From: Promethearchaeota archaeon
GTDB taxonomy: Archaea; Asgardarchaeota; Lokiarchaeia; Sigyniarchaeales; SOKP01
Direction of reading: 5' to 3'
DNA: 64,000 nt
Assembly: GCA_048941285.1 (NCBI GenBank)
Contig: JBHLNS010000014.1
Span: 1-64,000, forward strand
Position numbers and translations under genes: made by a program. Positions 8,840-57,426 of the stretch are shown one piece after another; position 1 is the stretch's first letter, and every line of letters begins with the position of its first letter. The notes below the pieces were generated by a model. That model made no database searches. It saw only the letters and a program-made list of their open reading frames with translations, and was not told where the DNA came from.

Positions 8840-10192
8840 TTATATATTTGATAAGGCTATTATTTCTGCTTCTTCGCGTTCTAAAAGCATTGGTGTTTTT
8901 TCCCAACTTATTTCTTTAGGAAGTTTAAATTGACGTAGAAACATATAAAGATGAATAAATCCACTTATTGGCCAATAAAATATAAGACTGTAATGTTTGT
9001 CGCAGTATTTTCTTATAGTGTTGATTAAGAACCCAAATTGGAAAAATATACAGGATAGAGTCCAAATTAGTAAATAATATTCTCCAATGAGAAACTGAAA
9101 TATTGCAAATGCAATTTCAATGGGAATCCATGTGTCCATATTTGCTAAAACCATCATTGTCATGTTTCTAGCAATTATTAATTTTTTTCCATCTTTATAT
9201 TCACTTTTCATTTTCATTAATTGGGGCATATCGCCTATAAATCCTGCTAGCCAACGTGTACGCTGTTTCACTAAAATCTCCCAACTGCTAGGTACGTATT
9301 CATATATTTTAGCTTTAGGGGAGAATCTAATGATAACACCATCTAAATTTAAAAGTGCTGAGAGATATAGATCTTCTGTCATCGAATCTTCATTAAAGCC
9401 TCCGTATTTTTGGAGATAACTTGTTCTAACAGCAAAATTTCTTCCAAATGAATAGGCAGAAGAACCTAATCTATTTTTAACTTCAAAGAGCAAACCTCCC
9501 CCCGAAACGATACCATAATCAAGAAAAATTCCCTTAGTGAGTTTATTATCTTTCCAGTTTTTAACTAGAACTGGACCTATAACTGCATCAATGTATTCAC
9601 GTTGAAAAGGAGATATCAAATTTGTAAGACTATTAGACTTTAAAATGCACCCTGAATCATAAAGCACAACAATTTCGTTTTTTACGTGTTCTAAACCATA
9701 ATTGAGCGCTGCTGGTTTTCCTTTTTTAGGCAAATCTTTTGATAAGATTTTTATATCGAGATCGGTATGTTCTCTTGCAAAATTATTTGAATATTCCGTT
9801 GTATCATCTGTAGATCCACTTGTTATTATAATTACTTGAATCTTTTCTTTAGGATAGTCTGATTTAACTATAGAATCTAAAGTTCTCTCTAATAATATTT
9901 TTTCATTTTTTGAAGCAATCAAGATGCTAATTTCTTCGTAGTATAGTGTTTTTGGTTTATAGCCACTCCCAAAAGACGCAAGAAAATGTATTCCATAATA
10001 AAGTACAAATCCTAATAGCATAATTAAACCAATTAGAGGAAATATAAACCACCAATATGTTAGAGGCGCAACCAAAAATGTATCAATGGCTTCTTTTACA
10101 CCCGAAGACCATAAAGCTGGAAAATACATGTGTATCAAAACAAAAAAAACTAGCCATATAGCACCATATAATAAATATCTGTACAATTTCAT
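8840..10192 (-). CDS. Membrane-bound processive-type GT2 glycosyltransferase
   Basis: KGKPAALNYG, TED and QRTRW (QxxRW) motifs; TM helices at both ends. Confidence 0.9.
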   Translation of the reverse strand: MKLYRYLLYGAIWLVFFVLIHMYFPALWSSGVKEAIDTFLVAPLTYWWFIFPLIGLIMLLGFVLYYGIHFLASFGSGYKPKTLYYEEISILIASKNEKILLERTLDSIVKSDYPKEKIQVIIITSGSTDDTTEYSNNFAREHTDLDIKILSKDLPKKGKPAALNYGLEHVKNEIVVLYDSGCILKSNSLTNLISPFQREYIDAVIGPVLVKNWKDNKLTKGIFLDYGIVSGGGLLFEVKNRLGSSAYSFGRNFAVRTSYLQKYGGFNEDSMTEDLYLSALLNLDGVIIRFSPKAKIYEYVPSSWEILVKQRTRWLAGFIGDMPQLMKMKSEYKDGKKLIIARNMTMMVLANMDTWIPIEIAFAIFQFLIGEYYLLIWTLSCIFFQFGFLINTIRKYCDKHYSLIFYWPISGFIHLYMFLRQFKLPKEISWEKTPMLLEREEAEIIALSNI

Positions 10193-10219
10193 TGTTTTTA
10201 ATCACTTATATACTATTTT

Positions 10220-11155
10220 TTAATCCAAATCAACAACTTCAATTTTTTTTAGGTTTTTCCATATAAATTTGCCAAATAGAATTATCGAAAGGATCATAAT
10301 AACTAATAAACTAATTTGATAAATTAGCATAGTCCATGTCACTATCCAAGTGTGTGAAGCATACCATATTGTAGCAGAAGGATTAATTAGGTTGGTTATT
10401 AAGGTTGCAAGACTCGAAACACCATACATTACAAAAAATGTAGTAATAACTAATACTCGTGTTATTCTCTCACCTATGAATGGTTTTGTTTCATGTAAAC
10501 CCAAACCTTCATGTCTTGCTCTCATATACTCATAAATGAAAATAAGGTATATATTTGTCCAAACTATCCATCTAAAATCAACCCCTGGAAAAATCAATAA
10601 ACTGGTAGGAACCAAACAAACTAACATTAGAATATCACTTACTCTATCAATTACATTATCCAGCCAAGCACCCGTTTTTGATTTAATATCTAAGAGCCTC
10701 GCGATTGCACCATCAATTCCGTCCACAATACCAGTAAATAAGACTAGTAATGCTAAAGCAAAGAACCATGATCCATATAAAGGTTGTTGACTAATTAAAT
10801 CAAGTGAATGACCTGCACTAGCCATTATCACTCCCCAAAATATGAGAAATGATAAAATTAAATTTATAACTGATACCATATTTGGACTTAATCCCAATTT
10901 TATGAAAAGTTTTGCCCCACCATACGTTATTGGCATATAAAGTTTTCCCGCAGGATCTTTTTTCATTTGGTTGAATTGTTCTTCCAATTTATGAGCTTGT
11001 CCGTGATCTTTAAGCCAATCTTTTATGAATTCATCACAAGTCATAAATTCTTGTTTCGGTCTTCTCTTGGGTATTCCATAAAGGATAATAATAATTAGAA
11101 GTACAACGAGAATTAGAGGAAACACTAACGTAAATAATAAACTAAAAGTTGACAT
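10220..11155 (-). CDS. CDP-alcohol phosphatidyltransferase
   Basis: Signature DGIDGAIAR...GAWLDNVIDRVSD; SPNMVS; multiple TM segments. Confidence 0.93.
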   Translation of the reverse strand: MSTFSLLFTLVFPLILVVLLIIIILYGIPKRRPKQEFMTCDEFIKDWLKDHGQAHKLEEQFNQMKKDPAGKLYMPITYGGAKLFIKLGLSPNMVSVINLILSFLIFWGVIMASAGHSLDLISQQPLYGSWFFALALLVLFTGIVDGIDGAIARLLDIKSKTGAWLDNVIDRVSDILMLVCLVPTSLLIFPGVDFRWIVWTNIYLIFIYEYMRARHEGLGLHETKPFIGERITRVLVITTFFVMYGVSSLATLITNLINPSATIWYASHTWIVTWTMLIYQISLLVIMILSIILFGKFIWKNLKKIEVVDLD

Positions 11156-11409
11156 CTTGTTCGCCTGAAATATGTATTTATTTTTTTCTTTAAATATTTT
11201 TGAAAATGTAATTTTAATTAGAATTTAAAATATTTTAAATTTATTTAATTTTAGTCCATCCACTTATTTATTTAAAGAGACAAAAATAGGCGATAATTTT
11301 TTGTCTTAATATATATAATTTTGTTTTGAAAATTGGACTCCTAAAAATATATATAAATAGGTATGGTTATAATACTAAAAAATCAATCTAATTAAAAGTG
11401 AATTAATAA

Positions 11410-18706: not shown

Positions 18707-19960
18707 TTAACTTATAAAAATCTCTTTCAATTCATCTGGTATTTCTGCCGATTCATCCATTAATGAAAGAGCATAGACCTTATCTCCACAATTACACTTT
18801 TTCCCTTCAAATAAATAGAATTTGAGCTGATCTTTCCAATTACATATCTGAACGCTCTTAATTTCAGCAACATCACCACATACACAATAAATTGCCATTT
18901 CTTCTGAATAATTCGGCATTATGATAGAGAAATCATTTGGTGCTTTGCTAAATTCAGAGTTATTCAACATTTCATTAATTTGATCGGCAAATTTATCTTT
19001 AAGCACCGGTTCAAAATAATTTATAATTCCATCACGGCCTTTTATATTTGTAAGAACAATAAAGTTCTTCTCCATCTTCTCAGCAGTCATTTTTTCAGAA
19101 ATTGTAGGTTCTTGGTATTGCTGAAGCTGCTCTGGTACGGGAATTGGTTCCACACCAGAAGGATATTCAAAAGTATAAATGTATTGCATCGTACCTCTTA
19201 TGTTCCTTTGGGATATTAGGTTTAAATTCTGATAATCCTGACTATGGAGAACAAATTTTATTAATTGCAGAGGAACTCTTAATTCAATTAGTCTTGTTCG
19301 AATATTTTCTAATAATTCACCCGCAAAGTTCTTTAATATCATAATATCGCCTCTATAATCAGAATATATTTGATTTTTATATTCATCTTTGAAAGCAAAC
19401 CATTTTTTCACAACACTACTTCTAATTAATTGAGGAGCCATGCAAAACACACATAATACAGGAAGTACAAAATAGGTTAATTCAGGCCAAATAAATGCTA
19501 CTACTACAGGAATAAACATAGGTAACATGAGAAGTAATGACATTTTTCGCAGACGTTTTTCAACTGATGATTTAATACCTTTACTCATAGCAAGCTCTTC
19601 TGCTTTTATCTTTAATTTATTAATAATGTCAAGTATCTCTCTGGATTCAAAGGATTGCTTCAAAAGTAAATCTTCTTCACTTTCCAAGCTGTTTAAATGG
19701 GTTGTCGTTTCTTTTATATATTGATTTAAAGTGCTATCCTTGAAGATGAATTGTAATGTCTCTTCTGAATAAAAATCCAAAAAACGAACAATAAAAAGTT
19801 TTTTCTCAATATCCTTAATATCGGTTTCATTCAAACCAAGAGCTTCTTGAATCATTTGACCCTGTGTTTTTCTAGGTTGTCTTCCCAATTTCTTCCTTTT
19901 TTTCTCTATAGTTTGTGAACTTTCAGAGCTAACTCTTTCATCATTCTCAGTGTTAGTCAT
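18707..19960 (-). CDS. Hypothetical 2-TM protein with Cys-containing C-terminal domain
   Basis: Long ORF, central hydrophobic hairpin, CVCG and CNCG near the C-terminus. Confidence 0.7.
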   Translation of the reverse strand: MTNTENDERVSSESSQTIEKKRKKLGRQPRKTQGQMIQEALGLNETDIKDIEKKLFIVRFLDFYSEETLQFIFKDSTLNQYIKETTTHLNSLESEEDLLLKQSFESREILDIINKLKIKAEELAMSKGIKSSVEKRLRKMSLLLMLPMFIPVVVAFIWPELTYFVLPVLCVFCMAPQLIRSSVVKKWFAFKDEYKNQIYSDYRGDIMILKNFAGELLENIRTRLIELRVPLQLIKFVLHSQDYQNLNLISQRNIRGTMQYIYTFEYPSGVEPIPVPEQLQQYQEPTISEKMTAEKMEKNFIVLTNIKGRDGIINYFEPVLKDKFADQINEMLNNSEFSKAPNDFSIIMPNYSEEMAIYCVCGDVAEIKSVQICNWKDQLKFYLFEGKKCNCGDKVYALSLMDESAEIPDELKEIFIS

Positions 19961-20092
19961 AATTTATAAAAAAATTAATGTTTTAATAGTTAAGCTAAGT
20001 AATTATTAGCGGTAAATTAACTTTTGGAAAAATGAAAAAGAAATTAAAAAGAAAAGTAGTATAATCAAAAAACTATGACTTAATATTTTAAA

Positions 20093-43212: not shown

Positions 43213-44244
43213 TTGTTAAAAATTAAGGTGATTAATCAATTGAAAGTTTTATTAACTGGAGCATTTGGCAATGTTGGTTTAAGTACTTTAAAAGAGTTGC
43301 TTAAGAGAAATCATGATATAAGAGTTTTTGACATTAGAACTAAAAAAAATAAAAGACTTGCTAACAAATATAAGAAAGAGATAGAAATTGTTTGGGGAGA
43401 TCTGAGAGATTATAGCTGTGTAGAAAAAGCTGTTTCTGACAGAGATGTGGTTATACATGTTGCTGCGATTATTCCTCCTCTTGCCGATAAAAAACCAAAA
43501 TTCGCAGAATCTATAAATGTGGGAGGTACCGCTAATATCATTGAAGCAATAGAAAAGCAACCTAAAAAACCAAAATTGATCTTTACATCTTCAATTGCAG
43601 TTTATGGAGATAGACTTGAAAATCCTCTGATAAGGCCGAAAGATTCACCAAATCCTAATTCAGATGACGAATATGCTAAACAAAAATTAAAATGTGAAGA
43701 ACTAATAAAAAAATCTAATTTGGAATGGGCAATCTTTAGATTAACTTATATTGTATCATTAAATAAACTGCAGATGGATCCTTTAATGTTTGAAATGCCA
43801 CTTAATACATCTATCGAAATTTGTGATACAAATGATGTTGGCTTAGCTCTTGCTAATGCTGTTAATTGTGAAGAAATCTGGGGAGAGATTTTGCATATTG
43901 CTGGTGGAGAAAGATGTCGCATTTCATATCGAGAATATCTTAATGAAATGCTCGATATTTTTGGTATTGGTTTTGAAGAATTACCTGAAGAAGCTTTCAG
44001 GCAAGATAGGGGTTTTCACTGCGGTTTCATGAATACAGATAAAAGTCAAGTACTTCTAAATTATCAAAGATATACGCTCGATGATTACTTCGCTGCAGTA
44101 AGGAAAAAAGTAGCATTTTCACGTTTTTTTACTACGATGTTTAAACCAATTGCTCAAAAGTTTCTATTAAACAAATCTCATTATTATAAAGAATCTCTAA
44201 ACAGTCATCTTTCAGAATCAAAAAATTACTTGAGGAAGCTTTAA
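43213..44244 (+). CDS. NAD-dependent epimerase/dehydratase (extended SDR; start likely TTG 43240)
   Basis: VLLTGAFGNVG, HVAA, SSIAVYG, YAKQK (YxxxK). Confidence 0.92.
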   Translation: MLKIKVINQLKVLLTGAFGNVGLSTLKELLKRNHDIRVFDIRTKKNKRLANKYKKEIEIVWGDLRDYSCVEKAVSDRDVVIHVAAIIPPLADKKPKFAESINVGGTANIIEAIEKQPKKPKLIFTSSIAVYGDRLENPLIRPKDSPNPNSDDEYAKQKLKCEELIKKSNLEWAIFRLTYIVSLNKLQMDPLMFEMPLNTSIEICDTNDVGLALANAVNCEEIWGEILHIAGGERCRISYREYLNEMLDIFGIGFEELPEEAFRQDRGFHCGFMNTDKSQVLLNYQRYTLDDYFAAVRKKVAFSRFFTTMFKPIAQKFLLNKSHYYKESLNSHLSESKNYLRKL

Positions 44245-44461
44245 AAGCAGTTAATAAAGAAATGGTTTATTACTCAGATATCGAGGGCTATAAAGGATCT
44301 ATTGAAGTTTGGAGTACCTGGCAAGAAGGATTTGAAGCTTTAGGTATACAAATTCCCGACTTATAATCCCAAAAAAATACAATAATAATTTAATATTTTT
44401 TTTTAATCTAATAACTTCATTTTTTAATATAAAAATCAAATTTCTAAACTAAAATGTTTAA

Positions 44462-44660
44462 GATCAATCACAAATGTATTGATCATTGACTTTTTCCAAA
44501 ATTAAATAGTCAAGAATCTTCAATCTGGTTAAAAATTGTTTGATGTTGTGACCGCTTTACAAATATTTGATTATATCGATTAACAGAAAGTATTAAAAAT
44601 ATTGAAAATGAATAAATTTTAAAAAAAAATATTTAAAATTGATCTTAACAAATAGATCAA
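44462..44660. promoter_or_regulatory. Two GATC-containing inverted repeats upstream of the hdr cluster
   Basis: GATCAAT-N9-ATTGATC at 44462-44484 and TTGATCT-N8-AGATCAA at 44639-44660. Confidence 0.4.
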
Positions 44661-44749
44661 TATTGGAAATTAAAAACCATTCAATAAAAATCTAAGAAAT
44701 TTATTAATATACAATAATGTAAAAGCTAGAGGTGGATGTGTAAGAATAG

Positions 44750-46693
44750 ATGAGTAATACTGAAAATCATCGGATTGGATACTATGCTTGTCAATGAGGT
44801 GTAAATATTAGAACGAAAGTTGATTGCGATGAATTAACTGAGTTCGTGAAAAATCTCGGTGATGAGATTATAATTTCAAAGAAAAATCCATTTCTTTGAA
44901 CTGATAATGCTCAGAATGAAATTATAGAAGATATCAAGGAAAAGAACTTAAATAGAATTGTGGCATCAGCTTGAACCCCACGTACACATGAAGTAATTTA
45001 TAGAGGTACTATTGCTAAAACAGATTTAAATCCATACTATTTTCAAATGGTAAATGTCCGTGAACACTGTTCATGGTGTACAGACAGCAAAGAAGAAGCC
45101 ACAAAAAAAGCGAAAATTCTAGTGAAAAGCGGTATCGAAAGAGTGAAGCGATTAGAGACAGTTCCCATCAAAACGGTCCCGGTTACTAAAGCTACATTAA
45201 TTGTAGGAGGTGGAATCGCAGGGATGAATGCAGCTTTAGATCTAGCAAATCAAGGTATTAAGGTTTATTTGGTTGAACAAAAAACCACTATAGGAGGAAG
45301 AATGTCTCAATTGGATAGAACTTTTCCAACAGATGACTGTGCAATATGAATTTGTGGTCCTAAAATGTTAGAGGTCAATAGAAATGAAAATATTGAATTA
45401 TTAAGTTTTAGTGAAGTAAAGAAAATTGAAGGATATGTTGGAAATTATAACGTAACAATCGAGAAGAAACCACGATATACAACAGACGAATGTAATGGGT
45501 GTGGAGCTTGTGCTGAAGTATGCCCTGTCTATACAACAAATTATTTCGACGAAAATTTAGGTGCTCGAAGAGCAATTGATATCCCCTTTGGTCAAGCAGT
45601 ACCATTTCTATACGATATAGATAGAAATGCATGTATAGAATGCTTCTCTTGTGTGGATGCTTGCGAATTAGATGCTATTGATTTTAGTCAAGAACCACAG
45701 GAACTAAATGCTGAGGTGGGAACAGTAATTATAGCAACAGGTTGGGATATATATGAACCTTTTGGTGAATACGGATATGGAGAATTCGAAAATGTTATCA
45801 CTCAAGTCCAGTTAGAACGAATATTGGCTCCAAATGGACCTCTTGAAGGTCATGTGCACCGAATTTCAGATAATAAGAAACCTAAGGAAATTGTATTTAT
45901 ACAATGTGTCGGAAGTCGTGAAACAGAAAGAACTTATTGTAGTGGTGTGTGTTGCATGCTTGCATTAAAAAATGGTCGATTGTTGCTAGAAGAATTTCCT
46001 GATGCAAACATTACAATTTGTTATATTGATATAAGAACTCCTGAAAAAGGATTCGAGGAGTATTATGATAGAGCTAAGGAAGCAGGTATTACTATGATTC
46101 GTGGAAAGGTGGGTGAGATCTCTGAAGATCCTGAAACTAAAAATGTGAAAGTACGTGTATATTCCTCTTTAACAGATAAGATTGTAATAATTGACGCAGA
46201 TTTAGTAGTATTGTCAACAGCAGCTCTTCCTTCTAAAGGTAGTCAGCAAATCATAGATATTTTAAATCTTGATACTAACGCATATGGATTTCTTACGGAA
46301 TCACATTTCGGTTTATTACCACAAGAAACAAAATCAAAAGGAATTTTTATAGCAGGGTTTGCTCAAGGTCCTAAAAACATTTCCTATTCTGTTTCTCAAG
46401 CTAGAGCAGCAGCTAGCAAAGTTGCTGAACTCACGGCGCCCGGAGAAATTGATATTGAACTCATCACTGCTGAAGTTGATAGTGAATTTTGTATTTCATG
46501 TCGACGATGTGAAAAACAATGCCCCAAAAATGCCATTAGGATTGAAAAAGAAACCGGAGCTTTTATTGATGAGATAAATTGCGATGGCTGTGGTATATGT
46601 GCTACATGCTGCCCTACTCAAGCTATTGATATAAGATACTATAGAGATTATCAGTTATTTGCAGAAATTGATGGTCTTTTAGGAGGTGATTAA
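44750..46693 (+). CDS. hdrA: Heterodisulfide reductase subunit A, selenoprotein with 4 in-frame UGA (647 aa)
   Basis: One frame from ATG 44750 (GAGGTGG upstream) through the tracked ORFs 45047 and 45365. TGA at 44795 (ACQ-U-G), 44897 (PFL-U-TD), 44972 (ASA-U-TPRTHE) and 45347 (DCAI-U-ICGPKM) align to Cys in paralogs (CHCG, NLYSCS, ASCTPRTHE, DCAICILAPK). Confidence 0.93.
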
Positions 46694-46699
46694 ACACAC

Positions 46700-47161
46700 A
46701 TGGTGTACAATTACAATTTAATTGTTTTTGCCTGTTTAAAGTGAGGATATAGTGCAGCTGATTTAGCAGGAGTTTCTCGATTAAAATATACTCCGGCGGT
46801 TAAAATCATAAAAGTAAGATGCACTGGTCGAGTTGATGTTAAACATATTTTCTATAGTATTCGTGCGGGAGCTGATGGAGTTATGGTTGTTGGTTGACGC
46901 CCAAACGAGTGTCAATTTAAAAATGGTAATTTCACGGCTCAAAGACATATAGATTTAGCAAACAGAATCTTGGAATCTCGTGGTTTCGGAGATCAAAGAA
47001 TAAACATGTATTGGTTAAGTGGAGCAGAGTCAGAGAAATTTGTGAAAAGTGTTGAAGATGCTTTAGGAAAGGTTGAGAAAGCTGGGCCAAATCCACTTAA
47101 CTTAGAAGAAACGTCACCAAAAATAAAACAAAAACAAGTAATAACTACCCCTGCAGAATGA
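46700..47161 (+). CDS. mvhD: MvhD/VhuD [2Fe-2S] subunit, selenoprotein with 2 in-frame UGA (153 aa)
   Basis: ATG 46700 after AGGAGGTGA; MVYNYNLIVFACLK-U-GYSAADLAG...RCTGRVD...VVG-U-RPNECQF. TGA at 46742 and 46895 match CNWCSY and GCHPGDC of the paralogs. Confidence 0.93.
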
Positions 47162-47214
47162 TTCTTATAAACAAATTCTAGTTATAAGAAGACTAACCTT
47201 GCAAAGGAAGGGGT
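47147..47214 (+). promoter_or_regulatory. Eukaryote-like SECIS element (AUGA...GA core)
   Basis: ATGA (47158-61), TTCTTATAA, loop ACAAATTCTAG, TTATAAGAA, GA (47191-92): perfect 9-bp stem with AAA in the loop. Possible lower stem ACCCCT (47147-52) / AGGGGT (47209-14). Confidence 0.85.
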
Positions 47215-47277
47215 TTTTAAATAGTATTCAATTAAAAGTTAAAATGTAATAAAAATGTAATCCAAAAGGGTGGAAAT

Positions 47278-48780
47278 ATGGTTCAGATTTCAAAAAATCA
47301 TAATTTTAATGGAATATCTCCAAAGATTTTGATGGATGCTACCTACAAAGCAGTTGAGAATTTTCAGATTAGAGCATTTTTTGAGGCAAAAGATGACATT
47401 TTGAATACTGGTAAATATTCTGAAGATGAATTTTATGAAATTCTGGATTCGATGATAGATGCTGAAACAGAACGTAAATTAGTGTTACAAACATTAACTG
47501 GTAAAGAACCGTTATTTTTAGATGAAATTGCTAGATTATTAAAAGATTTTCCTCAAGAAAACGCAATTCGAGATGTCATATATTTGAAAGAACAAGGATA
47601 TATTGAAGAACTAATCGAAGTAAAAAGTAAAACTGTCATTAAAAAAATCAAGGGAGAAGAGAAAGAAGTAGAGGAAAAAGAATATTTGTATAGATATCAA
47701 GTTAAGGATAAAGCTTATGATTTTATTGAGCATTTTTTTGAACCTGTTTCTATTGTGTTTGATTCTGAAGTATGTTGTCAGTGTGGTTGGTGCTCATCAA
47801 TTTGCCCAGTAAATGCAATTTCAGTGACAGCAGATACTTTAGAAATAGATGATGTAATTTGTATGAAATGTGGCTTATGTTATTCTGTTTGTCCGAGATC
47901 ATTTTCAATTGAACAAGCGGGCAAAAATATAAATAAACTTGATAAATCTTTAAAATTTTCAGAAGAAATTAACGGTTATATTAGTACTTATTCGGCTACA
48001 ACCATTAAGGATGAGATTAAAAAAGTAAGACAGGATGGAGGGATTGTAACGTCTCTCCTTGAATACCTCCTAAAAAATAAACTAGTTGATGCAATTGTAG
48101 CAGTACAACATTCAAAGGAATTATGGAAACCAGAGCCCATTATCATAGAAGATGTTAAAGATTTGTACAAAACTAGTGGAACAAAATATGCTAACGCCTC
48201 AACTTTAAGTATAATCGCTGATACTAAAAAGTACGAAAATATTGCGGTTGTAGGTGTTCCTTGCATGATGAACGCTCTCAAAAAGGGGATTTTATTCCCG
48301 AGCGGATTACCTTTTTTCAAGAACATTAGATATAGAATTGGGCTTTTTTGCATGGAATCCTTTCCCTATAACGGTGTTCTTAACTTAATTAAAGAACAAT
48401 TTAAAAAAGATTTTAATAAAGTTACAAAAATGGATATAAGTGGAGGTAAATTTATCATTTACTTAGATTCTGGCGAGGACTTAAACGTACCTTTAAAAGA
48501 AGTTAAATCATATGCTCGGCATAATTGCCATTATTGTGAGGATTTAACTGCTGACTATGCCGATATTTCTGTGGGATCAATTGGGTCCCCTAGCGGTTGG
48601 TCTACAGTAATTACTCGGAATAAAGAAGGTGAAAAAATCTATAAAGAAGCAATTGAGGCAGGGCTAATAGAATCTAAGAATTTAAAAGACGTTAAACCTG
48701 GACAACCTTTATTAGAAAGGATTGCTGGAACCAAAAGAAAAGATTGTAAACCTATTATATTGGAAAAAAAACAAGAATGA
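47278..48780 (+). CDS. FrhB-family F420-binding subunit with N-terminal winged-helix-like domain
   Basis: CCQCGWCSSICP, CMKCGLCYSVCP, QDGGIVT, VGVPC, IGLFCMESF, CHYCEDLTADYADISVGSIGS. Confidence 0.9.
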   Translation: MVQISKNHNFNGISPKILMDATYKAVENFQIRAFFEAKDDILNTGKYSEDEFYEILDSMIDAETERKLVLQTLTGKEPLFLDEIARLLKDFPQENAIRDVIYLKEQGYIEELIEVKSKTVIKKIKGEEKEVEEKEYLYRYQVKDKAYDFIEHFFEPVSIVFDSEVCCQCGWCSSICPVNAISVTADTLEIDDVICMKCGLCYSVCPRSFSIEQAGKNINKLDKSLKFSEEINGYISTYSATTIKDEIKKVRQDGGIVTSLLEYLLKNKLVDAIVAVQHSKELWKPEPIIIEDVKDLYKTSGTKYANASTLSIIADTKKYENIAVVGVPCMMNALKKGILFPSGLPFFKNIRYRIGLFCMESFPYNGVLNLIKEQFKKDFNKVTKMDISGGKFIIYLDSGEDLNVPLKEVKSYARHNCHYCEDLTADYADISVGSIGSPSGWSTVITRNKEGEKIYKEAIEAGLIESKNLKDVKPGQPLLERIAGTKRKDCKPIILEKKQE

Positions 48781-48791
48781 AATAATCCTAT

Positions 48792-50090
48792 TTGGATTTA
48801 ACTAAGGGAGTGAGATCTATAACAGAAACAGAAAAACAAAAAAAATCGAAACAAATTACTGAGGATACAGATTTTCTTATAAGAAAAATATATAAATCAG
48901 ATCTCAGAAATTTATTGAAAAAATGCTATCAATGTGCTCGTTGTTCTGGTGTATGTCAAATTAGTAAAGTTCAAAAATTTACTCCCAGTAGAATTATCCA
49001 GATGATCTTAGAAGGATTTGAAGATGATATAATTAAGAGCGGAGTGTTATGGGATTGTTTAATGTGCAATAGCTGCCTTCAAATGTGCCCCAAAGACATA
49101 AATTTTGCGGATATTGTACGAATTGCTAGATATAAAATGAGGATGCTAGATATTCAAAATCTTGATCGTTCTATTGCCCATAAAGGCATTTATACCATGA
49201 TGTCAGAATTAATGAGTCAAAATAATATTAAAATCGAAAGGCCTTTAGATTGGGTACTAAAAGGGTGCAAAATTTCAGAAAGAGGTAATATTTTATATTA
49301 TGTAGGGTGTTTACCCTTTTTTGGTTTTGAATTTGAAAATTCAACTTCTATAGCAGAAAGTACACTGAAACTTATTTATAAACTCGAGAAGGAGCCAATA
49401 GTAGTTCTTAAAGAAGAAACATGTTGTGGCCATGATTTGTATTGGGGTCAAGCAAAATTCGAAGCCTTTATTGACCTGGCTAAGAAAAATGTAAATAAGT
49501 TTGAAAAAGCAGGGGTTTCAACAATAATAACAGCATGCGCTGAATGTTATAGAACATTTAAAATTGATTATCCAAATTTATTTGAAGATTTTAATGATAA
49601 ATTTGAAGTTAAACATATTATTGAATATATTTTTGATAATTGGAAACAAGGTAAAGTTCAGTTTAAGAAACCAAATGAATCCAATGAGGCTATTCATTTC
49701 ACTTATCACGATCCTTGTAGATTAAGTAGGTATTTACCTAAAGAAAATAATATAATTGAAGAAGTTAGAGAACTATTTTATCATTTGGAAACAATAGGTT
49801 ACGTTTTTAAGGAAATGGAGCATAATAAAAAAAATTCATATTGTTGTGGAGTTAATTCTTGGATGAATTGTAATGAAAGATCCAAAGCTTTGCGATATAA
49901 GCGTCTTTCAGAAGCTAAAGCTGTTGGAACTAAATTGATCACCTCATGTCCGAAATGTAGAATGCATTTAAATTGCTTAAAAAAGGATTATGATGAGTTT
50001 GCTTCAATGGAAATAATAGATTTTTCAGATTTTCTATGCGATATAACAGATATAATAAATTCCGATAATAAGATTGAGGTTAAAGGATAA
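48792..50090 (+). CDS. HdrD-like Fe-S oxidoreductase (HdrC-like ferredoxin plus two CCG domains)
   Basis: CYQCARCSGVC, CLMCNSCLQMCP, YVGC, TCCG, TACAEC, YHDPC, YCCG, TSCPKC. Confidence 0.88.
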   Translation: MDLTKGVRSITETEKQKKSKQITEDTDFLIRKIYKSDLRNLLKKCYQCARCSGVCQISKVQKFTPSRIIQMILEGFEDDIIKSGVLWDCLMCNSCLQMCPKDINFADIVRIARYKMRMLDIQNLDRSIAHKGIYTMMSELMSQNNIKIERPLDWVLKGCKISERGNILYYVGCLPFFGFEFENSTSIAESTLKLIYKLEKEPIVVLKEETCCGHDLYWGQAKFEAFIDLAKKNVNKFEKAGVSTIITACAECYRTFKIDYPNLFEDFNDKFEVKHIIEYIFDNWKQGKVQFKKPNESNEAIHFTYHDPCRLSRYLPKENNIIEEVRELFYHLETIGYVFKEMEHNKKNSYCCGVNSWMNCNERSKALRYKRLSEAKAVGTKLITSCPKCRMHLNCLKKDYDEFASMEIIDFSDFLCDITDIINSDNKIEVKG

Positions 50091-53000
50091 TGGAGGGTTC
50101 TGTATTAGTTATTGGTGGTGGAATAGCTGGTATACAAACTTCTTTAGATTTAACTGAACTTGGTTTTAAAGTGTATTTAGTAGAAAAAACACCGTCAATA
50201 GGCGGCAGGATGGCTCAGCTCGATAAAACCTTTCCTACTTTAGATTGTAGCCTATGTATTCTTGCTCCTAAAATGGTGGAAGTGTTCAGAAATCCAAATA
50301 TTGAATTAATGACATATCATGAAATTAAGAAGGTTTCCGGAGATACAGGAAATTTTACTGTTTTAGTACTTAAAAAGCCTCGGTATATTGATGAAACAAA
50401 ATGTAAAGGTTGTGGGCAATGCAGTGAGAAATGTCCCAAAATAGAAGTACCTAATTATTTTGATATGAATTTAGGCAAAAGAAAATCTGTATACATCCCA
50501 TTTCCTCAAGCAGTACCTCCCGTATACTTAATCGATCCAGAATTATGCTTAAAGCTCACTAAAGGAGTTTGTGGTGTATGTGAGAAAGTTTGTAGCGCCG
50601 AAGCCATAGATTTCGAACAAAAGCCTCAAGAAATCGAATTAAATGTCGGAGCTATTGTAGTTGCTACTGGTTTTGATATGTTTGGAGAGGAACTAGCATC
50701 TCGATGGGGTTATAACTTCGAGAATGTGATAAATGGGTTAGAATATGAGAGAATTTTATGCGCATCTGGGCCATTTGATGGCCATGTTATACGCCCAAGT
50801 GATAAAAAGGAACCAGAAAACATTGCCTTTATTCAATGTGCCGGTTCAAGAGATTTACAGCAACGAGTTCCTTATTGTTCTAGTGTATGTTGCATGTATG
50901 CTGCTAAAGAAGCTATTATCACAAAAGAACACTCAGAGCATTCCAAATGTTTTGTTTTTAGACATGATATTAGAGCCTATGGGAAAAATTTCTATGAATT
51001 TACTCAAAAAGCTCAGGAAGAATATGGCGTAAAATACTTCCATACCAAAGTTAGTAAAATCATAGAAGATCCTGAAACAAATGATTTAATAATTCATTAT
51101 GAAGATTTACAATCTGGATTACTTAATAGTTTCCGTGCAAATTTAGTTGTTTTAGCAACACCGCTAGTTCCTTCTAATGGAACTAAAGTGTTAGCAAATA
51201 TCTTAGATATCAACTTAGACGAATATAATTTCTTTAAAGAAAAAAATCACTTTACAAAATCAATATCTTCAAAAAAAGGTATTTTCTTAGCTGGATTTTG
51301 TCAAGGTCCAATGGATATACCAGAAACTGTAGCAGATGCTAGTGGGGTAGCTTCCCAAGTAGCAGCTTTACTCAGCTCTGCAAAATACACCCAAATAAAA
51401 GAGAAAGTATTTGAAATACCAGAAAAAGAAGTTGATTTAACAGAAGAACCTAGAATTGGAGTACTGATCTGTCATTGTGGTATTAATATTGGTAAATATA
51501 TTGATATTCCTCAAGTTGTAGAAACTGTAAAATCATTGCCAAATGTAATTTTTTGTGAAGATAATTTATATTCATGCTCTAGTGATTCTCAAACAAGAAT
51601 TAAAGAAGTAATTAGTGAGTATAATTTAAATAGATTTATTGTGGCATCCTGTACACCAAGAACACATGAATCTTTATTTCAAGAAACTTGTCAAGAAGCT
51701 GGATTAAATAAATATCTTTTTGAAATGGCAAATATTCGCGATCAATGTTCCTGGGTTCACATGACAGAGAAGGATCTTGCTACTGAGAAAGCTATAGATT
51801 TAATTGAAATGACGGTTGCTAAATCAAGATTATTAAGATCGCAGCAAGAACCAAAATTATCAGTAATATCAGAGGCATTAATAATTGGTGGCGGTATCTC
51901 TGGAATGACTGCTGCACTGAATATTGCTAATCAAGGATATCCAGTTTATCTTGTAGAAAAAGAGAAGATTCTTGGAGGAATTTTAAATGATTTATATCTC
52001 TTATATCCAACTCAAGAAGATGCTTCAAACTTCTTAATAGAGACAATAGAAAATGTTGAGAAGAATAAAAAAATTCAAGTGTATTTAGAGTCTAGTGTAA
52101 AGGATGTAAAAGGATATCTTGGTAATTATCATGTCTCAATTATTAACTCCAAAAGCCAAGTAAATGAATTGAGTGTTGGAGTAATTATCGTTGCTACTGG
52201 GGCTCAAGAGTTAAAACCTCTAGGATTTAGTCAATACAATGATAATAACAACAATGTTATTACAGAAATGGAATTAGAAAAGCGATTGAATAATAAAGAT
52301 CACTCTTGGCTTGATAAAATTAAAAGAGTCACAACTATTTTATGTGTAAATGCGAGAGAAAAACAAGGAATTACATACTGTTCTAATATCTGTTGTGCAA
52401 CTGCCATTAAAAATATGAATATCTTAAAAGAGTTAAAATCAGATTTGGAAATGATTGTTCTTTATAGGGATTTTCAAATGGCTAAAAAAGAATTTGAAGA
52501 ATATCTTTTTGATAGAAGAAGAGATGCCATACTTCTAAGATACGATTTGACTAGACCACCAGAAATAAAAAAGATCAATAATAAATCTGAGAAATATGAG
52601 ATAAATGTATTTGATACGAATTTACAGGATATTATTACCTTTGAAACAGATCTAATTATTTTATCTCCACCCATGATTCCCTCAGACAATTCAGATTTAT
52701 TAGCAAAAATGCTTAAAGTACCTTTAGATAGACATGGTTTTTTCTTGGAGGCACATGCTAAATTACGACCAGTAGATTTTGCTACAGACGGAATATTTTT
52801 ATGTGGGTGTGCTCATTGGCCGAAGCATATTCAGGAATCAATCACGCAAGCAAATGGTGCTGCGGGGAGAGCGAGCAGATTTTTGAGCTCAAAGGATATT
52901 ATTTCCTCTGGGTTAGTAGCAGAAATTAATAGTGAATTATGCGTTGGATGTAAAGTATGTATGAAACTTTGTCCTTATAATGCTATATCTAAGAACGAGG

Positions 53001-53140
53001 ATAATATAGTAATTATAAATAAGTTGCTTTGTAAGGGATGTGGTGTGTGTGGTGCAAGTTGTCCGGAAAATGCTATAATTGTATATCATTTTACAAATGA
53101 GCAAATTCTATCAGAAATTATTGCTTATGGAGGAGAATAA
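50090..53140 (+). CDS. hdrA: Large HdrA-family flavoprotein with two FAD modules (Cys form)
   Basis: Two GGGIxG FAD motifs, DKTFPTLDCSLC, QCAGSR, CHCG, CTPRTHE, FFLEAH.KLRP, ferredoxin motifs. Confidence 0.92.
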   Translation: MEGSVLVIGGGIAGIQTSLDLTELGFKVYLVEKTPSIGGRMAQLDKTFPTLDCSLCILAPKMVEVFRNPNIELMTYHEIKKVSGDTGNFTVLVLKKPRYIDETKCKGCGQCSEKCPKIEVPNYFDMNLGKRKSVYIPFPQAVPPVYLIDPELCLKLTKGVCGVCEKVCSAEAIDFEQKPQEIELNVGAIVVATGFDMFGEELASRWGYNFENVINGLEYERILCASGPFDGHVIRPSDKKEPENIAFIQCAGSRDLQQRVPYCSSVCCMYAAKEAIITKEHSEHSKCFVFRHDIRAYGKNFYEFTQKAQEEYGVKYFHTKVSKIIEDPETNDLIIHYEDLQSGLLNSFRANLVVLATPLVPSNGTKVLANILDINLDEYNFFKEKNHFTKSISSKKGIFLAGFCQGPMDIPETVADASGVASQVAALLSSAKYTQIKEKVFEIPEKEVDLTEEPRIGVLICHCGINIGKYIDIPQVVETVKSLPNVIFCEDNLYSCSSDSQTRIKEVISEYNLNRFIVASCTPRTHESLFQETCQEAGLNKYLFEMANIRDQCSWVHMTEKDLATEKAIDLIEMTVAKSRLLRSQQEPKLSVISEALIIGGGISGMTAALNIANQGYPVYLVEKEKILGGILNDLYLLYPTQEDASNFLIETIENVEKNKKIQVYLESSVKDVKGYLGNYHVSIINSKSQVNELSVGVIIVATGAQELKPLGFSQYNDNNNNVITEMELEKRLNNKDHSWLDKIKRVTTILCVNAREKQGITYCSNICCATAIKNMNILKELKSDLEMIVLYRDFQMAKKEFEEYLFDRRRDAILLRYDLTRPPEIKKINNKSEKYEINVFDTNLQDIITFETDLIILSPPMIPSDNSDLLAKMLKVPLDRHGFFLEAHAKLRPVDFATDGIFLCGCAHWPKHIQESITQANGAAGRASRFLSSKDIISSGLVAEINSELCVGCKVCMKLCPYNAISKNEDNIVIINKLLCKGCGVCGASCPENAIIVYHFTNEQILSEIIAYGGE

Positions 53141-53918
53141 ACACTTGGTATTTAGACCGAAAATTTTAGGATTTTTATGTAATTGGTGTTCTTATGCTGG
53201 AGCTGATCTTGCTGGTGTTAGCAGAGTACAATATTCTCCTAATATTAGAATAATTAGGGTAATGTGCAGCGGTAGAGTTGATCCTATTTTTGTAGCTGAA
53301 GCTTTCTCAAAAGGAATTGATGGAGTACTTGTATTAGGTTGTCACCCTGGAGATTGCCACTATATTAGCGGCAATTATGAAGCAGAAATGAAAATGAATA
53401 TGTTAAGTAAATTATTAGATTATATTGGATTTTCTGAACGCTTTCGGTTAGATTGGGTCTCAGCATCCGAGGGAAATAGATTTGCCCAACTTGTAAATGA
53501 ATTTAATGAACTTATAATCAATTTAGGGCCTTCTCTAATTAATAATAAAAAATTAAAAAAACCGTTATCTGACGATTTTGATATAATTAAATCAGTATTA
53601 GCCGAGTCTAGAATTAGGACTTTAGTCAGTAGAGAAAGGATAATCACTACTGAGGGTAATGTATATAATGAAATAATATCAAAAGACGAATTTGAAGATA
53701 TTATTGATGATAGTCTATATAAAGAATTCATTCGTCATAAAATAATACAAAAAATTAAAAAAAAGAGCAAATCAGTTCCAGAAATATCTAAAGAGATACA
53801 AGTTAAGCCAAATGAAGTATTAAATCATATTATAACTCTAAGACAAAGAGGTTTAGTTGATCTTGATGAAATACATGAAGAAATTCCAACATTCAAATCA
53901 ATTAAGGAGGAAAAATAA
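53127..53918 (+). CDS. mvhD: MvhD-family subunit with C-terminal winged-helix extension (Cys form; ATG 53127 preferred to tracked start)
   Basis: LCNWCSYAGADLAG, VMCSGRVD, GCHPGDCHY, WVSASEG; C-terminal SVPEISKEI...LRQRGLV. Confidence 0.9.
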   Translation: MEENKHLVFRPKILGFLCNWCSYAGADLAGVSRVQYSPNIRIIRVMCSGRVDPIFVAEAFSKGIDGVLVLGCHPGDCHYISGNYEAEMKMNMLSKLLDYIGFSERFRLDWVSASEGNRFAQLVNEFNELIINLGPSLINNKKLKKPLSDDFDIIKSVLAESRIRTLVSRERIITTEGNVYNEIISKDEFEDIIDDSLYKEFIRHKIIQKIKKKSKSVPEISKEIQVKPNEVLNHIITLRQRGLVDLDEIHEEIPTFKSIKEEK

Positions 53919-56900
53919 TGGAAAAGGTTGGTGCTGTCTTAGTTGTAGGGGGAGGAATTGCTGGGATTCAATGTTCTATAGATTTAGCAGATTCAGGTTA
54001 TAAGGTTTATTTAGTCGAATCCACGACAAGTATAGGAGGTGTAATGTCTCAATTAGATAAGACATTTCCAACTAATGATTGCGCAATATGCATTCTTGCC
54101 CCAAAATTGGTACAAACAGGGCGCCATGAGAACATTGATATTTTGATAAATTCAACTATAAAAAAAATAGATGGAGAACCAGGCAATTTCATTATTGATT
54201 TAACTCAAAAAACACTATATTTGGATCAAGATAAATGTACTGGTTGTGGTCTTTGTGCTCAAAAATGTCCAATAGAAGCAATAGATACATTTAATAAAGG
54301 ACTTTCAAACAAAACAGCTATTTCTGTTAAATTCCCTCAAGCTGTTCCTTTAGTTTTTTCTATCAATAGAAATAAATGTATAGGTTGTGGTGTTTGCGAA
54401 GGGATATGTAAAGCTGAAGCAATAAATTATGCACTTAAAGATAAAGATATACGGCTTAATGTAGGGGCAGTCGTACTTGCAACTGGGTTTGATGAATACA
54501 ATCCAACTCCTCTAACTCAACTTGGTTATGGTAAACATTTAAATGTCATTACTAGTACTGAATTTGAACGGATATTGAGTGCAAGTGGACCACATGCAGG
54601 TTTAATACTCCGACCGTCTGATGGAATTATTCCAAGAAAAATAGCGTTCTTACAATGTATTGGTTCAAGAGATAAACAGTATGGTGTTGATTATTGTTCT
54701 TCTGTATGTTGCATGTATTCTACAAAAGAAGCAGTTATTGCTAAGGAACATATGAATATAGTAGAACCTACTATTTTTACTATGGATATTCGAGCATACG
54801 GAAAAGATTTTGATAAATATATTGAACGAGCAAGAGAAGAGTATGGTGTAAGATTTATAAGACGGAGAATATCTACAATTAAAGAGATTCCAGATTCTAA
54901 GGATCTAAGAGTATTTTACGAGACAGAAAATGGAAGAATTATTAATGAAACTTTTAACTTAGTAGTCTTATCAGTAGGAATGCGACCTAATAAAAAAGCA
55001 GAAGAAATAGCAAAAAAATTAAATATCGAATTAAATGAGTATGGTTTTTGTAAAACTAACCATTTTAATCCAGTAGAAACTTCGAGATCAGGAATTTATG
55101 TATGTGGAGCGTTTGCAGCACCAAAAGATATTCCAGAAACGGTTATCGAAGCTAGTGCAGCTGCAGGAAGTGTGAATGTTCTCCTTTCGGATGTGAGAAA
55201 TCAATTAATAGCTAGAAAACAACTTCCAGAAGAAATCGATGTATCTGATCAGCCACCTCGAATAGGTGTATTTATTTGTCATTGTGGAATAAATATAGGT
55301 GGAGTTGTCAACGTTCCTGAAGTGGTTGAATATGTTAAAACTTTGCCTAATGTAGTTTATGCCGAGCATAATTTATATACTTGTTCTGCAGACACTCAAA
55401 CTGGCATTAAAGAAAAGATAGAAATAAATAAATTGAATCGAGTTATAGTCGCTTCATGCACTCCAAGAACGCATGAACCTTTATTTCAAGAAACAATAAG
55501 AGAAGTTGGCTTAAACAAATATCTTTTTGAAATGGTTAACATTCGAGATCAATGTTCATGGGTTCACATGCATGAAGCTGAAAATGCGACTTTAAAAGCA
55601 AAAGATTTATTGAGAATGTCAGTAGCGAAGGCGAGACAACTAATTCCTTTACAAGAACAAGAAATTAATGTCATAAGTAAAGGTTTAGTTATAGGCGGAG
55701 GTGTATCTGGAATATCTGCTGCTTTAAATCTTGCTTCTCAAGGCTTTAAGGTCTTCTTAATTGAAAAGGAAGACTCTCTAGGAGGATTTGCTAAAAATAT
55801 TTATCGAACGCTTGAAGGTGACGATGTCCAAAAATATCTTAAGAATTTAATTGAAAAAGTTGAGAATAATCAACAAATTAAAGTCTTCAAAAATACTCGA
55901 ATTAATTCAATAACAGGATACATTGGAAATTTTACTACTAATATAAATTATGGAAAAAATAACGAAAATGTTGATCTTGAACATGGAATAATTATTGTAG
56001 CAACCGGAGCAGAAGAATATCACCCTAAAGAATATAATTATGGAAAGGATCATAGAATTATTCCCCAAACTGATTTTGAAAATCTTCTTTTCGCTACTCC
56101 AGATAAAATAAAAGAATTAAATTCAATAGTTATGATTCAATGTGTCGGCTCTAGAAATGAAGAACATCCCTATTGCAGTAGAATTTGTTGTTCCGAAGCT
56201 ATTAAAAATGCTTTAAAAGCAAAAGGAATTAATCCTAATTTAGAAATAATTATATTATATCGTGATATTAGAACCTATGGATTTAAAGAGAAATATTATA
56301 ATCAAGCAAGAGAAATTGGAGTATTATTCATTAGATTTGATGAAAAAAATCCTCCCGAATTAAATAGTAAAAATAAAAAGCTAAAGCTCTTAATAAATAA
56401 TCCTGATTTAGGAGAAATTGAGATAAATCCCGATATACTTATACTAAGCACAGGATTAATAGCACCTAGAAAAGAGAATGAAGATTTAGCAAAGATGCTA
56501 AAGGTGCCTCTTAATGAAGATAAATTCTTTTTAGAAGCCCACGTTAAATTAAGACCAATTGATTTTGCTACTGATGGTATTTTTTTATGTGGATGTGCTC
56601 ATTCACCTAAAAATATTAAAGAATCAATTACTCAGGCGAATGGAGCTGCAGCTCAGGCAGTCAAAATTCTTTGCTCTGAAAAGATTGTGACTTCTGGTCT
56701 TGTTGCTACTGTAATAGAAGAAAATTGCATCGGATGTGGAAGTTGTGTTGAGGTTTGCCAATTTAACGCTATAGAATTAATAGAGAAAGAAAGAACGTTT
56801 GAAGACTTTACTATTAAAATTAAGAAATCTCATGTTAATTCTGCTCTCTGTAAGGGATGTGGTACTTGTGGTGCTCAATGCCCTAATTCAACAATAGTTA

Positions 56901-56962
56901 TAAAACATTTTGGTTTTGAACAAATTAATGCAATGATTTCTGCTCTATTAGTCCAAAATTAG
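53918..56962 (+). CDS. hdrA: Large HdrA-family flavoprotein with two FAD modules (Cys form)
   Basis: Same architecture as 50090-53140: DKTFPTNDCAIC, QCIGSR, CHCG, CTPRTHE, QCVGSR. Confidence 0.93.
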   Translation: MEKVGAVLVVGGGIAGIQCSIDLADSGYKVYLVESTTSIGGVMSQLDKTFPTNDCAICILAPKLVQTGRHENIDILINSTIKKIDGEPGNFIIDLTQKTLYLDQDKCTGCGLCAQKCPIEAIDTFNKGLSNKTAISVKFPQAVPLVFSINRNKCIGCGVCEGICKAEAINYALKDKDIRLNVGAVVLATGFDEYNPTPLTQLGYGKHLNVITSTEFERILSASGPHAGLILRPSDGIIPRKIAFLQCIGSRDKQYGVDYCSSVCCMYSTKEAVIAKEHMNIVEPTIFTMDIRAYGKDFDKYIERAREEYGVRFIRRRISTIKEIPDSKDLRVFYETENGRIINETFNLVVLSVGMRPNKKAEEIAKKLNIELNEYGFCKTNHFNPVETSRSGIYVCGAFAAPKDIPETVIEASAAAGSVNVLLSDVRNQLIARKQLPEEIDVSDQPPRIGVFICHCGINIGGVVNVPEVVEYVKTLPNVVYAEHNLYTCSADTQTGIKEKIEINKLNRVIVASCTPRTHEPLFQETIREVGLNKYLFEMVNIRDQCSWVHMHEAENATLKAKDLLRMSVAKARQLIPLQEQEINVISKGLVIGGGVSGISAALNLASQGFKVFLIEKEDSLGGFAKNIYRTLEGDDVQKYLKNLIEKVENNQQIKVFKNTRINSITGYIGNFTTNINYGKNNENVDLEHGIIIVATGAEEYHPKEYNYGKDHRIIPQTDFENLLFATPDKIKELNSIVMIQCVGSRNEEHPYCSRICCSEAIKNALKAKGINPNLEIIILYRDIRTYGFKEKYYNQAREIGVLFIRFDEKNPPELNSKNKKLKLLINNPDLGEIEINPDILILSTGLIAPRKENEDLAKMLKVPLNEDKFFLEAHVKLRPIDFATDGIFLCGCAHSPKNIKESITQANGAAAQAVKILCSEKIVTSGLVATVIEENCIGCGSCVEVCQFNAIELIEKERTFEDFTIKIKKSHVNSALCKGCGTCGAQCPNSTIVIKHFGFEQINAMISALLVQN

Positions 56963-56991: not shown

Positions 56992-57426
56992 ATGAAAAGT
57001 CAACTGAAAAAGAAGGAAAAAGTTGTAAAGTTTAACCCAAACATTTTATGCTTTTGTTGTAATTGGTGTAGTTACGCTGGAGCAGATTTGGCGGGAGTAT
57101 CACGGTTTCAATATCCTTCTACTATAAGAGTAGTAAGAGTAATGTGTTCTGGTAGAGTAGATCCAGCTTTCATTTTAGAGGCATTTAAAGATGGAATTGA
57201 TGGCGTCATTGTAACAGGATGTCACATAGGTGACTGTCATTATTTAAAAGGAAATGAGTTTACAAAGGATAGGTTTGAACGCTTTCGTGAAATATTAAAG
57301 ATTTTTAATCTTGATAAAAGATTTAGACTTGAATGGGTAAGTGCATCAGAAGGTAAACGATTTGCTGAGGTTATTACTGAATTTACAGATGAAATTAAAA
57401 AACTAGGGCCATTACAAACAATTTAA
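56992..57426 (+). CDS. mvhD: MvhD-family [2Fe-2S] subunit (Cys form)
   Basis: CCNWCSYAGADLAG, CSGRVD, GCHIGDCHY, WVSASEG. Confidence 0.94.
   Translation: MKSQLKKKEKVVKFNPNILCFCCNWCSYAGADLAGVSRFQYPSTIRVVRVMCSGRVDPAFILEAFKDGIDGVIVTGCHIGDCHYLKGNEFTKDRFERFREILKIFNLDKRFRLEWVSASEGKRFAEVITEFTDEIKKLGPLQTI

Follow-up and report, generated by a model that had tools for sequence, protein, structure and literature searches.

An hdrA-vhuD pair with six in-frame UGA codons and one lokiSECIS in an Asgard archaeon

The hdrA-vhuD pair and its gene neighbourhood

The gene considered here, vhuD (mvhD), lies at positions 46700..47161 on the forward strand of the window, the term used for the whole 64-kb stretch of DNA that was analysed; the window is contig C4 of a 3.55-Mb assembly (G000) in 101 contigs, with a G+C content of 29.7% and a completeness of 94%. 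The gene encodes 153 amino acid residues followed by a TGA stop. Readthrough of the frame gives TGA at codon 15 (U15, 46742-46744), codon 66 (U66, 46895-46897) and codon 154 (47159-47161), the last being the stop, and the frame is free of TAA stops, TAG stops and frameshifts. The sole ORF that table 11 yields in this frame is 46970-47161, which starts with TTG and encodes 63 residues.

The upstream neighbour on the same strand is hdrA (44750..46693), which encodes a protein of 647 residues with FAD/NAD-binding and ferredoxin domains. Its four in-frame TGA codons, at 44795, 44897, 44972 and 45347, correspond to residues 16, 50, 75 and 200, and its stop is TAA (46691-46693). The six nucleotides ACACAC (46694-46699) separate this stop from the ATG of vhuD at 46700. 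A Shine-Dalgarno-like sequence, AGGAGGTGA, is located within the 3′ end of hdrA at 46681..46689 on the forward strand, 11-19 nt ahead of the ATG. The preliminary description of this DNA had given the same ATG and the same 6-nt gap, and had seen that an open reading frame track displays only the last 63 residues of the product; the strong motif that it placed upstream of the ATG is present, one base to the left of where a count from its wording would put it.

The pair is followed on the forward strand by a row of genes without in-frame TGA: an FrhB/FdhB-like protein (47278-48780), an HdrD-like CCG/ferredoxin protein (48792-50090) and two double HdrA-like proteins of about 1015 residues (50090-53140 and 53918-56962). 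Each of the two double HdrA-like proteins is succeeded by a Cys-type MvhD paralog, also on the forward strand, at 53079-53918 (FlpD, E 6.6e-53) and 56992-57426 (FlpD, E 2.4e-53). The first paralog has a C-terminal extension of about 130 residues, and its ORF overlaps the preceding gene. The product of the Sec-type vhuD is 33-34% identical to these Cys paralogs.

The readthrough product of vhuD matches the Pfam FlpD model (PF02662) with 140.3 bits (cut-off 22.3) and an E value of 4e-41, with residues 8-129 covering model positions 2-123 of 123; the profile check proposed in the preliminary description thus comes out in favour of the gene over the length of the model. Five Cys/Sec positions are conserved in the product, C12, C/U15, C41, C/U66 and C71, and all are invariant with respect to the two Cys paralogs of the window; the same five positions also align in 5ODC_D and 9SFI_K. 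In the three-way alignment with the window paralogs, U15 takes the place of the second Cys of CNWC and U66 that of the first Cys of GCHPGDC or GCHIGDC. The placement of both TGA codons on Cys columns, as originally described, is borne out by the readthrough and by this alignment. The paralog motifs given at that time need one correction: CNWCSY occurs in both paralogs, but GCHPGDC occurs in the first only, its counterpart in the second being GCHIGDC. The best solved relative of the product is the VhuD in the Hdr-Vhu-Fwd model of M. maripaludis (9SFI, chain K), which aligns with residues 7-134 at an E value of 1.2e-35. An X is printed in this chain at both TGA columns, and both X residues are read here as Sec.

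In HdrA, residues U16, U50, U75 and U200 are all opposite Cys in the HdrA chain of 5ODC. The HdrA chain of 9SFI has Cys opposite U16, U50 and U75 and a residue printed X opposite U200, and the paper that describes 9SFI names a selenocysteine, Sec197, in HdrA (PMC13518236). If the [4Fe-4S] cluster of the mobile N-terminal domain has the Cys residues opposite U16, U50 and U75 as ligands, the HdrA described here would have a largely selenium-ligated cluster.

Conservation of the pair and of the SECIS element

A scan of one genome per prokaryotic species for relatives of vhuD returned 48 loci, with identities of 67-91% over the best segment and 67-88% for gene-spanning matches. The record titles are mostly Asgard (Promethearchaeota, Promethearchaeia and so on); some read ‘uncultured archaeon’ and one is a Sumerlaeota bacterium. 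TGA is found at the first site in all 46 loci that cover it and at the second site in all 45 that cover it. Since the FlpD match is full-length and TGA is kept in every covering relative, the TGA pattern goes beyond chance, and the evidence supports a real, full-length VhuD/MvhD gene with two Sec codons at 46700-47161. The hidden two-Sec gene proposed in the preliminary description is thereby upheld, the X columns of 9SFI_K agreeing with it. Incorporation of Sec at U15 and U66 is predicted, and binding of a [2Fe-2S] cluster and docking to HdrA would be expected of the product from its homology to the solved complexes and from the adjacency of hdrA.

The upstream gene is conserved as well. A full-length hdrA is present in 36 loci and has four Sec codons in 32 of them, three in two and five in two. 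In loci L015, L018 and L019 the open hdrA frame reaches back only some 550 codons from its stop, despite more DNA upstream; a split or interrupted N-terminal domain is possible there. An upstream hdrA ORF is present in 44 loci. In every one of them it stops with TAA or TAG and never with TGA, and 4-11 nt separate it from vhuD (44/44). The sequence GGAGG occurs at the same place inside the 3′ end of hdrA in the printed rows of loci with an upstream hdrA.

The lokiSECIS core is located at 47158..47192 on the forward strand, directly at the end of vhuD. It consists of AUGA (47158-47161), a 9-bp helix (47162-47170 paired with 47182-47190), an 11-nt loop, ACAAAUUCUAG (47171-47181), and GA (47191-47192), and the stop codon of vhuD (TGA, 47159-47161) is contained in the AUGA. 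These dimensions are exactly those given in the lokiSECIS description of Mariotti et al. 2016 (PMC4989117). An outer, lower helix around the core spans 47147..47214 on the same strand, with ACCCCU (47147-47152) pairing with AGGGGU (47209-47214). It is followed by a run of five T (47214..47218, forward strand), a possible archaeal transcription stop; the consensus of the 47 sequences at the run is GGGGTTTTT.

The pattern of AUGA, nine base-pairs, 11-nt loop and GA is found behind vhuD in 46 of the 48 loci, and the other two end before the site. The sequence extends to the 3′ end in 46 loci, and in 44 of these the frame beyond Sec66 is first closed by the UGA within the SECIS AUGA; the remaining two have TAG or TAA as the vhuD stop, 5 or 17 nt earlier. 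Over 47 sequences, 95.5% of the upper helix is paired and both sides change in six of its nine pairs; the observed covariation score was reached by none of 500 shuffles. When the 3′ partners are slid by one to three columns, pairing of the whole tested structure falls from 89-91% to 43-61%. The outer helix has weaker support than the upper one, with 83% of cells paired and changes on both sides in three of six pairs. For the lower part of the element there are two alternatives, GCAG/UUGC and a small CCUU/AAGG hairpin, neither of which is preferred because their support is similar and modest. The alignment of 47 orthologous elements gives clean covariation support and shows, for these orthologs, that the SECIS core includes the stop codon.

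Rfam searches of 44000-48000 at E values up to 10 found no match to a SECIS family. The matches that did appear, to RybB, snoRNAs and others, were far below their gathering scores and are taken as chance. The element is one that works like the eukaryotic SECIS but is, by the Rfam test, a non-member.

One signal for two genes

A covariance model (R1) was built from the 47 SECIS cores, the window sequence included. With filters off, R1 gives one strong match in the whole 64-kb window, at 47155-47196 with 68.9 bits, as expected because the model was built from this sequence. The next best match in the window scores 15.4 bits (E 0.27) and the best within hdrA 9.1 bits (E 7.7), so by R1 there is no second SECIS in the window and no SECIS-like element in hdrA. 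Permissive pattern scans likewise detect no SECIS-like match in 44750-47157 and no second one elsewhere in the window, both methods being blind to any hdrA recoding signal of a different shape. Distances from the UGA codons to the SECIS are about 2363, 2261, 2186 and 1811 nt for hdrA and 416 and 263 nt for vhuD.

Parts of the stretch are contained in four sediment metatranscriptome runs from one study. The junction between hdrA and vhuD is bridged by one contig of 292 nt (record 3, run X1, two differences), which spans 46441-46732 and reaches 33 nt into vhuD. Other contigs cover 46742-46892 and 46966-47146. Together the contigs cover hdrA and vhuD piecewise, with none over 46116-46418 or past 47146; the SECIS is uncovered for the latter reason, and these gaps speak neither for nor against a common transcript. 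Since this is a metatranscriptome from one study in which DNA carry-over is possible, the two-gene contig is compatible with a common transcript and is no proof of one. A promoter and terminator scan with a bacterial model found 11 promoter-like sites, fewer than the mean of 14.3 in shuffled sequences; such a model is inapplicable to an archaeal host, and the result carries no weight here.

We infer that hdrA and vhuD are carried on one mRNA. The suggestion made at the outset that the two genes are co-transcribed, so that six UGA codons would have to be recoded on one message, is supported by the gap of 4-11 nt, the non-TGA stop of hdrA, the presence of one SECIS per pair and the junction contig. 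The short gap and the hdrA stop that is never TGA are what selection on a shared downstream SECIS predicts.

It is unlikely, though conceivable, that the gene is real and uses Sec while the signal is not shared, hdrA having an element of its own with another shape, or vhuD a promoter inside hdrA. The same genome contains, on the reverse strand of contig C67 (roughly 9330-11370), a solo hdrA with two Sec codons and its own SECIS (9275-9316) directly behind the stop. There is no vhuD after this gene, which is an exception to the rule that hdrA is always in tandem, and because it has its own SECIS, sharing of the element is not obligatory. The first UGA of the hdrA in the window is also about 2.36 kb from the SECIS, a distance for which there is no tested precedent in the available text of PMC4989117, and RNA contigs cover the region in pieces only. 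Against this explanation stand the lack of any SECIS-like match in 44750-47157 by pattern or by the covariance model with filters off, the constancy of the stop and gap in 44 of 44 loci, and the one RNA-library contig that bridges the junction. The reading in which hdrA and vhuD share the downstream lokiSECIS is preferred.

Selenocysteine machinery and other candidates in the genome

The genome encodes the components needed to supply Sec. A tRNA-Sec is located at C52:88257-88349 and adjoins a gene for SepSecS (472.6 bits, above the cut-off), while the window itself has no tRNA according to ARAGORN. An EFSec-like GTPase on contig C52 scores 239.7 bits against a bacterial SelB cut-off of 242.25 and matches model positions 1-296 of 581 only, and a PSTK-like kinase scores 153.9 bits, below its cut-off of 290.5; both identities are probable. 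Two tandem SelD genes (contig C39:20541-22670, forward strand), each with one in-frame TGA, score above the cut-off.

TGA is in regular use as a stop. Among stop-to-stop frames of 200 codons or more, it closes 296 of 2221 genome-wide and two of 40 in the window, where the other in-frame TGA codons of ORFs occur at ORF ends only. An altered code, in which TGA would specify a standard amino acid everywhere and no Sec would be involved, could draw on a single database protein of the unrelated UU family considered below, which prints WW (HADWWAD) where that family has two adjacent TGA codons; this WW is taken as the result of gene calling under a table with TGA as Trp. Given the use of TGA as a stop and the presence of tRNA-Sec and SepSecS, an altered code is extremely improbable.

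Equally remote is the explanation that the vhuD frame is a decaying mvhD pseudogene with TGA codons that arose as nonsense mutations. The genome contains 14 FlpD-like stretches, so the family is redundant, and one FlpD copy, a Cys-type remnant at C78:1909-2250 on the forward strand (L075:524-769), is truly decayed. That pseudogene is unlike vhuD, since its TGA replaces a residue other than Cys, and the match is reported to contain a TAA as well. In vhuD both TGA codons are exactly on Cys columns and are kept in 46/46 and 45/45 loci, the frame is intact, and a conserved SECIS lies behind the gene. For annotation, this means that vhuD and its neighbour hdrA are intact genes and that calling them as fragments (63 residues in the case of vhuD) or as pseudogenes is wrong.

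In the same genome R1 detects at least four further sites of 40-46 bits, outside its training set and each just behind an ORF with an in-frame TGA, among the 150 of about 12,000 first-look candidates that were scored. A second tandem, with an hdrA (two Sec) and a vhuD (two Sec) that share a SECIS, is found on contig C43. Contig C88 has an ORF of 49 residues (19917-20066, forward strand) with the sequence ..FDCULSC.. and no Pfam match; it is taken as VhuU-like from its size and motif, and its TGA stop is again the UGA of a SECIS AUGA. A Prx-like protein with NWUSHC is encoded on the forward strand of contig C1 (87601-88131; AhpC-TSA, E 3e-22).

One candidate has two adjacent TGA codons. This ORF (C24:5603-6076, corresponding to L072:304-777, reverse strand) encodes 158 residues (..ITIVVHADUUADVMRERL..) with a lokiSECIS-like hairpin right behind it, and the protein has no Pfam match. 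Relatives that make up this UU family are present in 65 of 301 genomes of the phylum (58 of 68 within the same taxonomic family), and 87 of 88 matches contain two or more TGA codons; the exception covers residues 2-80 only. An R1 SECIS is located just behind six of ten fetched homologs, and one more is behind a second copy in L079. Among 1.84 billion representative proteins, 20 matched. Most of these stop at the UU site or slightly short of it; three continue past it and print W in that region, one of them reading HADWWAD exactly at UU, and no Cys-Cys form is among the 20. The structure predicted from ten close homologs has a mean pLDDT of 46.7, too poor for a fold search. The family looks distinct from PrxL, the known two-Sec Loki family, because PrxL has UxxU. 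It is outside the five or seven families named in the available text of the published Asgard work (PMC4989117, PMC11227280), and a literature search on Asgard selenoproteins listed no paper with the phrase ‘adjacent selenocysteine’. The UU proteins are possibly a family of Sec-Sec selenoproteins that the published Asgard catalogues lack, and this family looks more novel than the vhuD locus.

Two smaller ORFs are predicted membrane proteins. The first (C65:271-501, L070, reverse strand) encodes 77 residues with one TGA (..GGDGUGCLV..) and has a SECIS behind it (R1, 41.6 bits) and no Pfam match. Of the 101 genomes of the order, the present one included, 14 contain a match; within the genus, the count is 12 of 27 genomes besides the present one. 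One TGA is present in 13 of the 14 matches, and the protein is a candidate small selenoprotein. The second (C36:38441-38653, L071:1254-1466, forward strand) encodes 71 residues with one TGA (..IIAUGHIL..) and has a SECIS-like element after it (R1, 40.4 bits). It is doubtful because, used as a query, it found no relative in 100 other genomes of the order.

Proposed decoding and comparison with known systems

The locus is best explained by an intact VhuD/MvhD-type gene that shares its transcript with hdrA, the six UGA codons being read as Sec by means of one lokiSECIS 3′ of vhuD (probability about 0.88). One transcript would carry both genes, and its six internal UGA codons, four in hdrA and two in vhuD, would be decoded as Sec by tRNA-Sec and an archaeal EFSec. 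Decoding would be directed by a single kink-turn, eukaryote-like SECIS that directly follows vhuD. Translation would terminate at the seventh UGA, the stop of vhuD inside the AUGA, most likely because this codon is too near the element for recoding; this accords with the minimal distance that the lokiSECIS seems to need (PMC4989117).

In the methanogen complexes, the [2Fe-2S] cluster of MvhD/VhuD is described as receiving electrons from the hydrogenase or formate dehydrogenase module and handing them on in the direction of the bifurcating FAD in HdrA. MvhD Cys16 is described as an additional conserved cysteine that lies, with HdrA Cys202 and Cys205, between this cluster and the FAD. With an alignment offset of +1, U15 appears to occupy the position of Cys16 of 5ODC MvhD, and U66 that of Cys67, presumably a cluster ligand; R67 and E70 of the vhuD product would be at the positions of His68 and Asp71. 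By motif, C197 and U200 of HdrA would correspond to Cys202 and Cys205.

A further proposal, which goes beyond the preferred reading and is regarded as rather doubtful, is that the location of the vhuD stop inside the SECIS is a mechanism and not an accident, combined with a selenol/diselenide relay between Sec15 and Sec200 across the subunit interface. The terminating ribosome would melt the element that licensed the six upstream UGA codons, and UGA codons for Sec and for stop would be told apart by position alone on a two-cistron message. Sec15 of VhuD and Sec200 of HdrA would face each other where electrons enter the bifurcating flavin.

The finding is correct but already known, and the system is not of a new kind, because the configuration was published by Mariotti et al. 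2016 and Huang et al. 2024. The former described HdrA-VhuD tandems of Lokiarchaeota with a shared lokiSECIS (PMC4989117), and the latter extended the survey to 1439 selenoproteins in 227 Sec-using Asgard genomes (PMC11227280). Three short motifs had no match in the alignments and trees available from Supplementary data 2 of Huang et al. 2024. In the published tandems, vhuD follows hdrA on the same strand after a very short gap, and hdrA never stops with UGA. VhuD has about 150 residues and two Sec, and HdrA has at most four, among them the canonical Sec close to residue 200; one SECIS (AUGA, 9-bp stem, 11-nt A-rich loop, GA) stands behind vhuD, and the six UGA codons extend over about 2 kb. 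From these accounts, nothing essential is different in the locus described here. The overlap of stop codon and AUGA is explicit only for VhuU.1 in the available text of PMC4989117, where VhuD stops are said to vary, whereas the overlap is found here in 44 of 46 loci.

The VhuD of Methanococcales (9SFI and 9T1S, the Hdr-Vhu-Fwd and Hdr-Vhu-Fdh complexes of M. maripaludis; PMC13518236) belongs to the same family and has the same two X columns. The accompanying HdrA chain has X only at the canonical position and Cys at the other three, while the HdrA here has four Sec. The methanogen SECIS is of the archaeal type and has only the AUGA_GA motif in common with the lokiSECIS (PMC4989117, PMC11227280). 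The hosts also differ, since the present one is an Asgard archaeon, a group treated in the literature as non-methanogens. Cys-type MvhD, as in chain D of 5ODC from M. thermolithotrophicus and in the window paralogs, has the same fold family and the same five conserved Cys/Sec positions but Cys at both positions where vhuD has Sec. In the window, the Cys paralogs follow the double HdrA-like proteins, whereas the Sec-type vhuD follows the shorter HdrA of 647 residues.

With the eukaryotic SECIS (Rfam SECIS_1) the element shares the AUGA...GA core beside a helix with an A-rich apical loop, and its location in the 3′ region. As in selenoprotein P, one element is associated with several distant UGA codons. 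The helix is shorter (9 bp) than in the eukaryotic SECIS, however, the message is polycistronic and the element is outside the Rfam SECIS families; unlike the eukaryotic system, Asgard archaea have no SBP2 reported in the available text of PMC4989117. The locus adds a well-preserved Asgard case to those where six UGA codons, spread across two cistrons and 2.4 kb, appear to be served by a single eukaryote-like SECIS.
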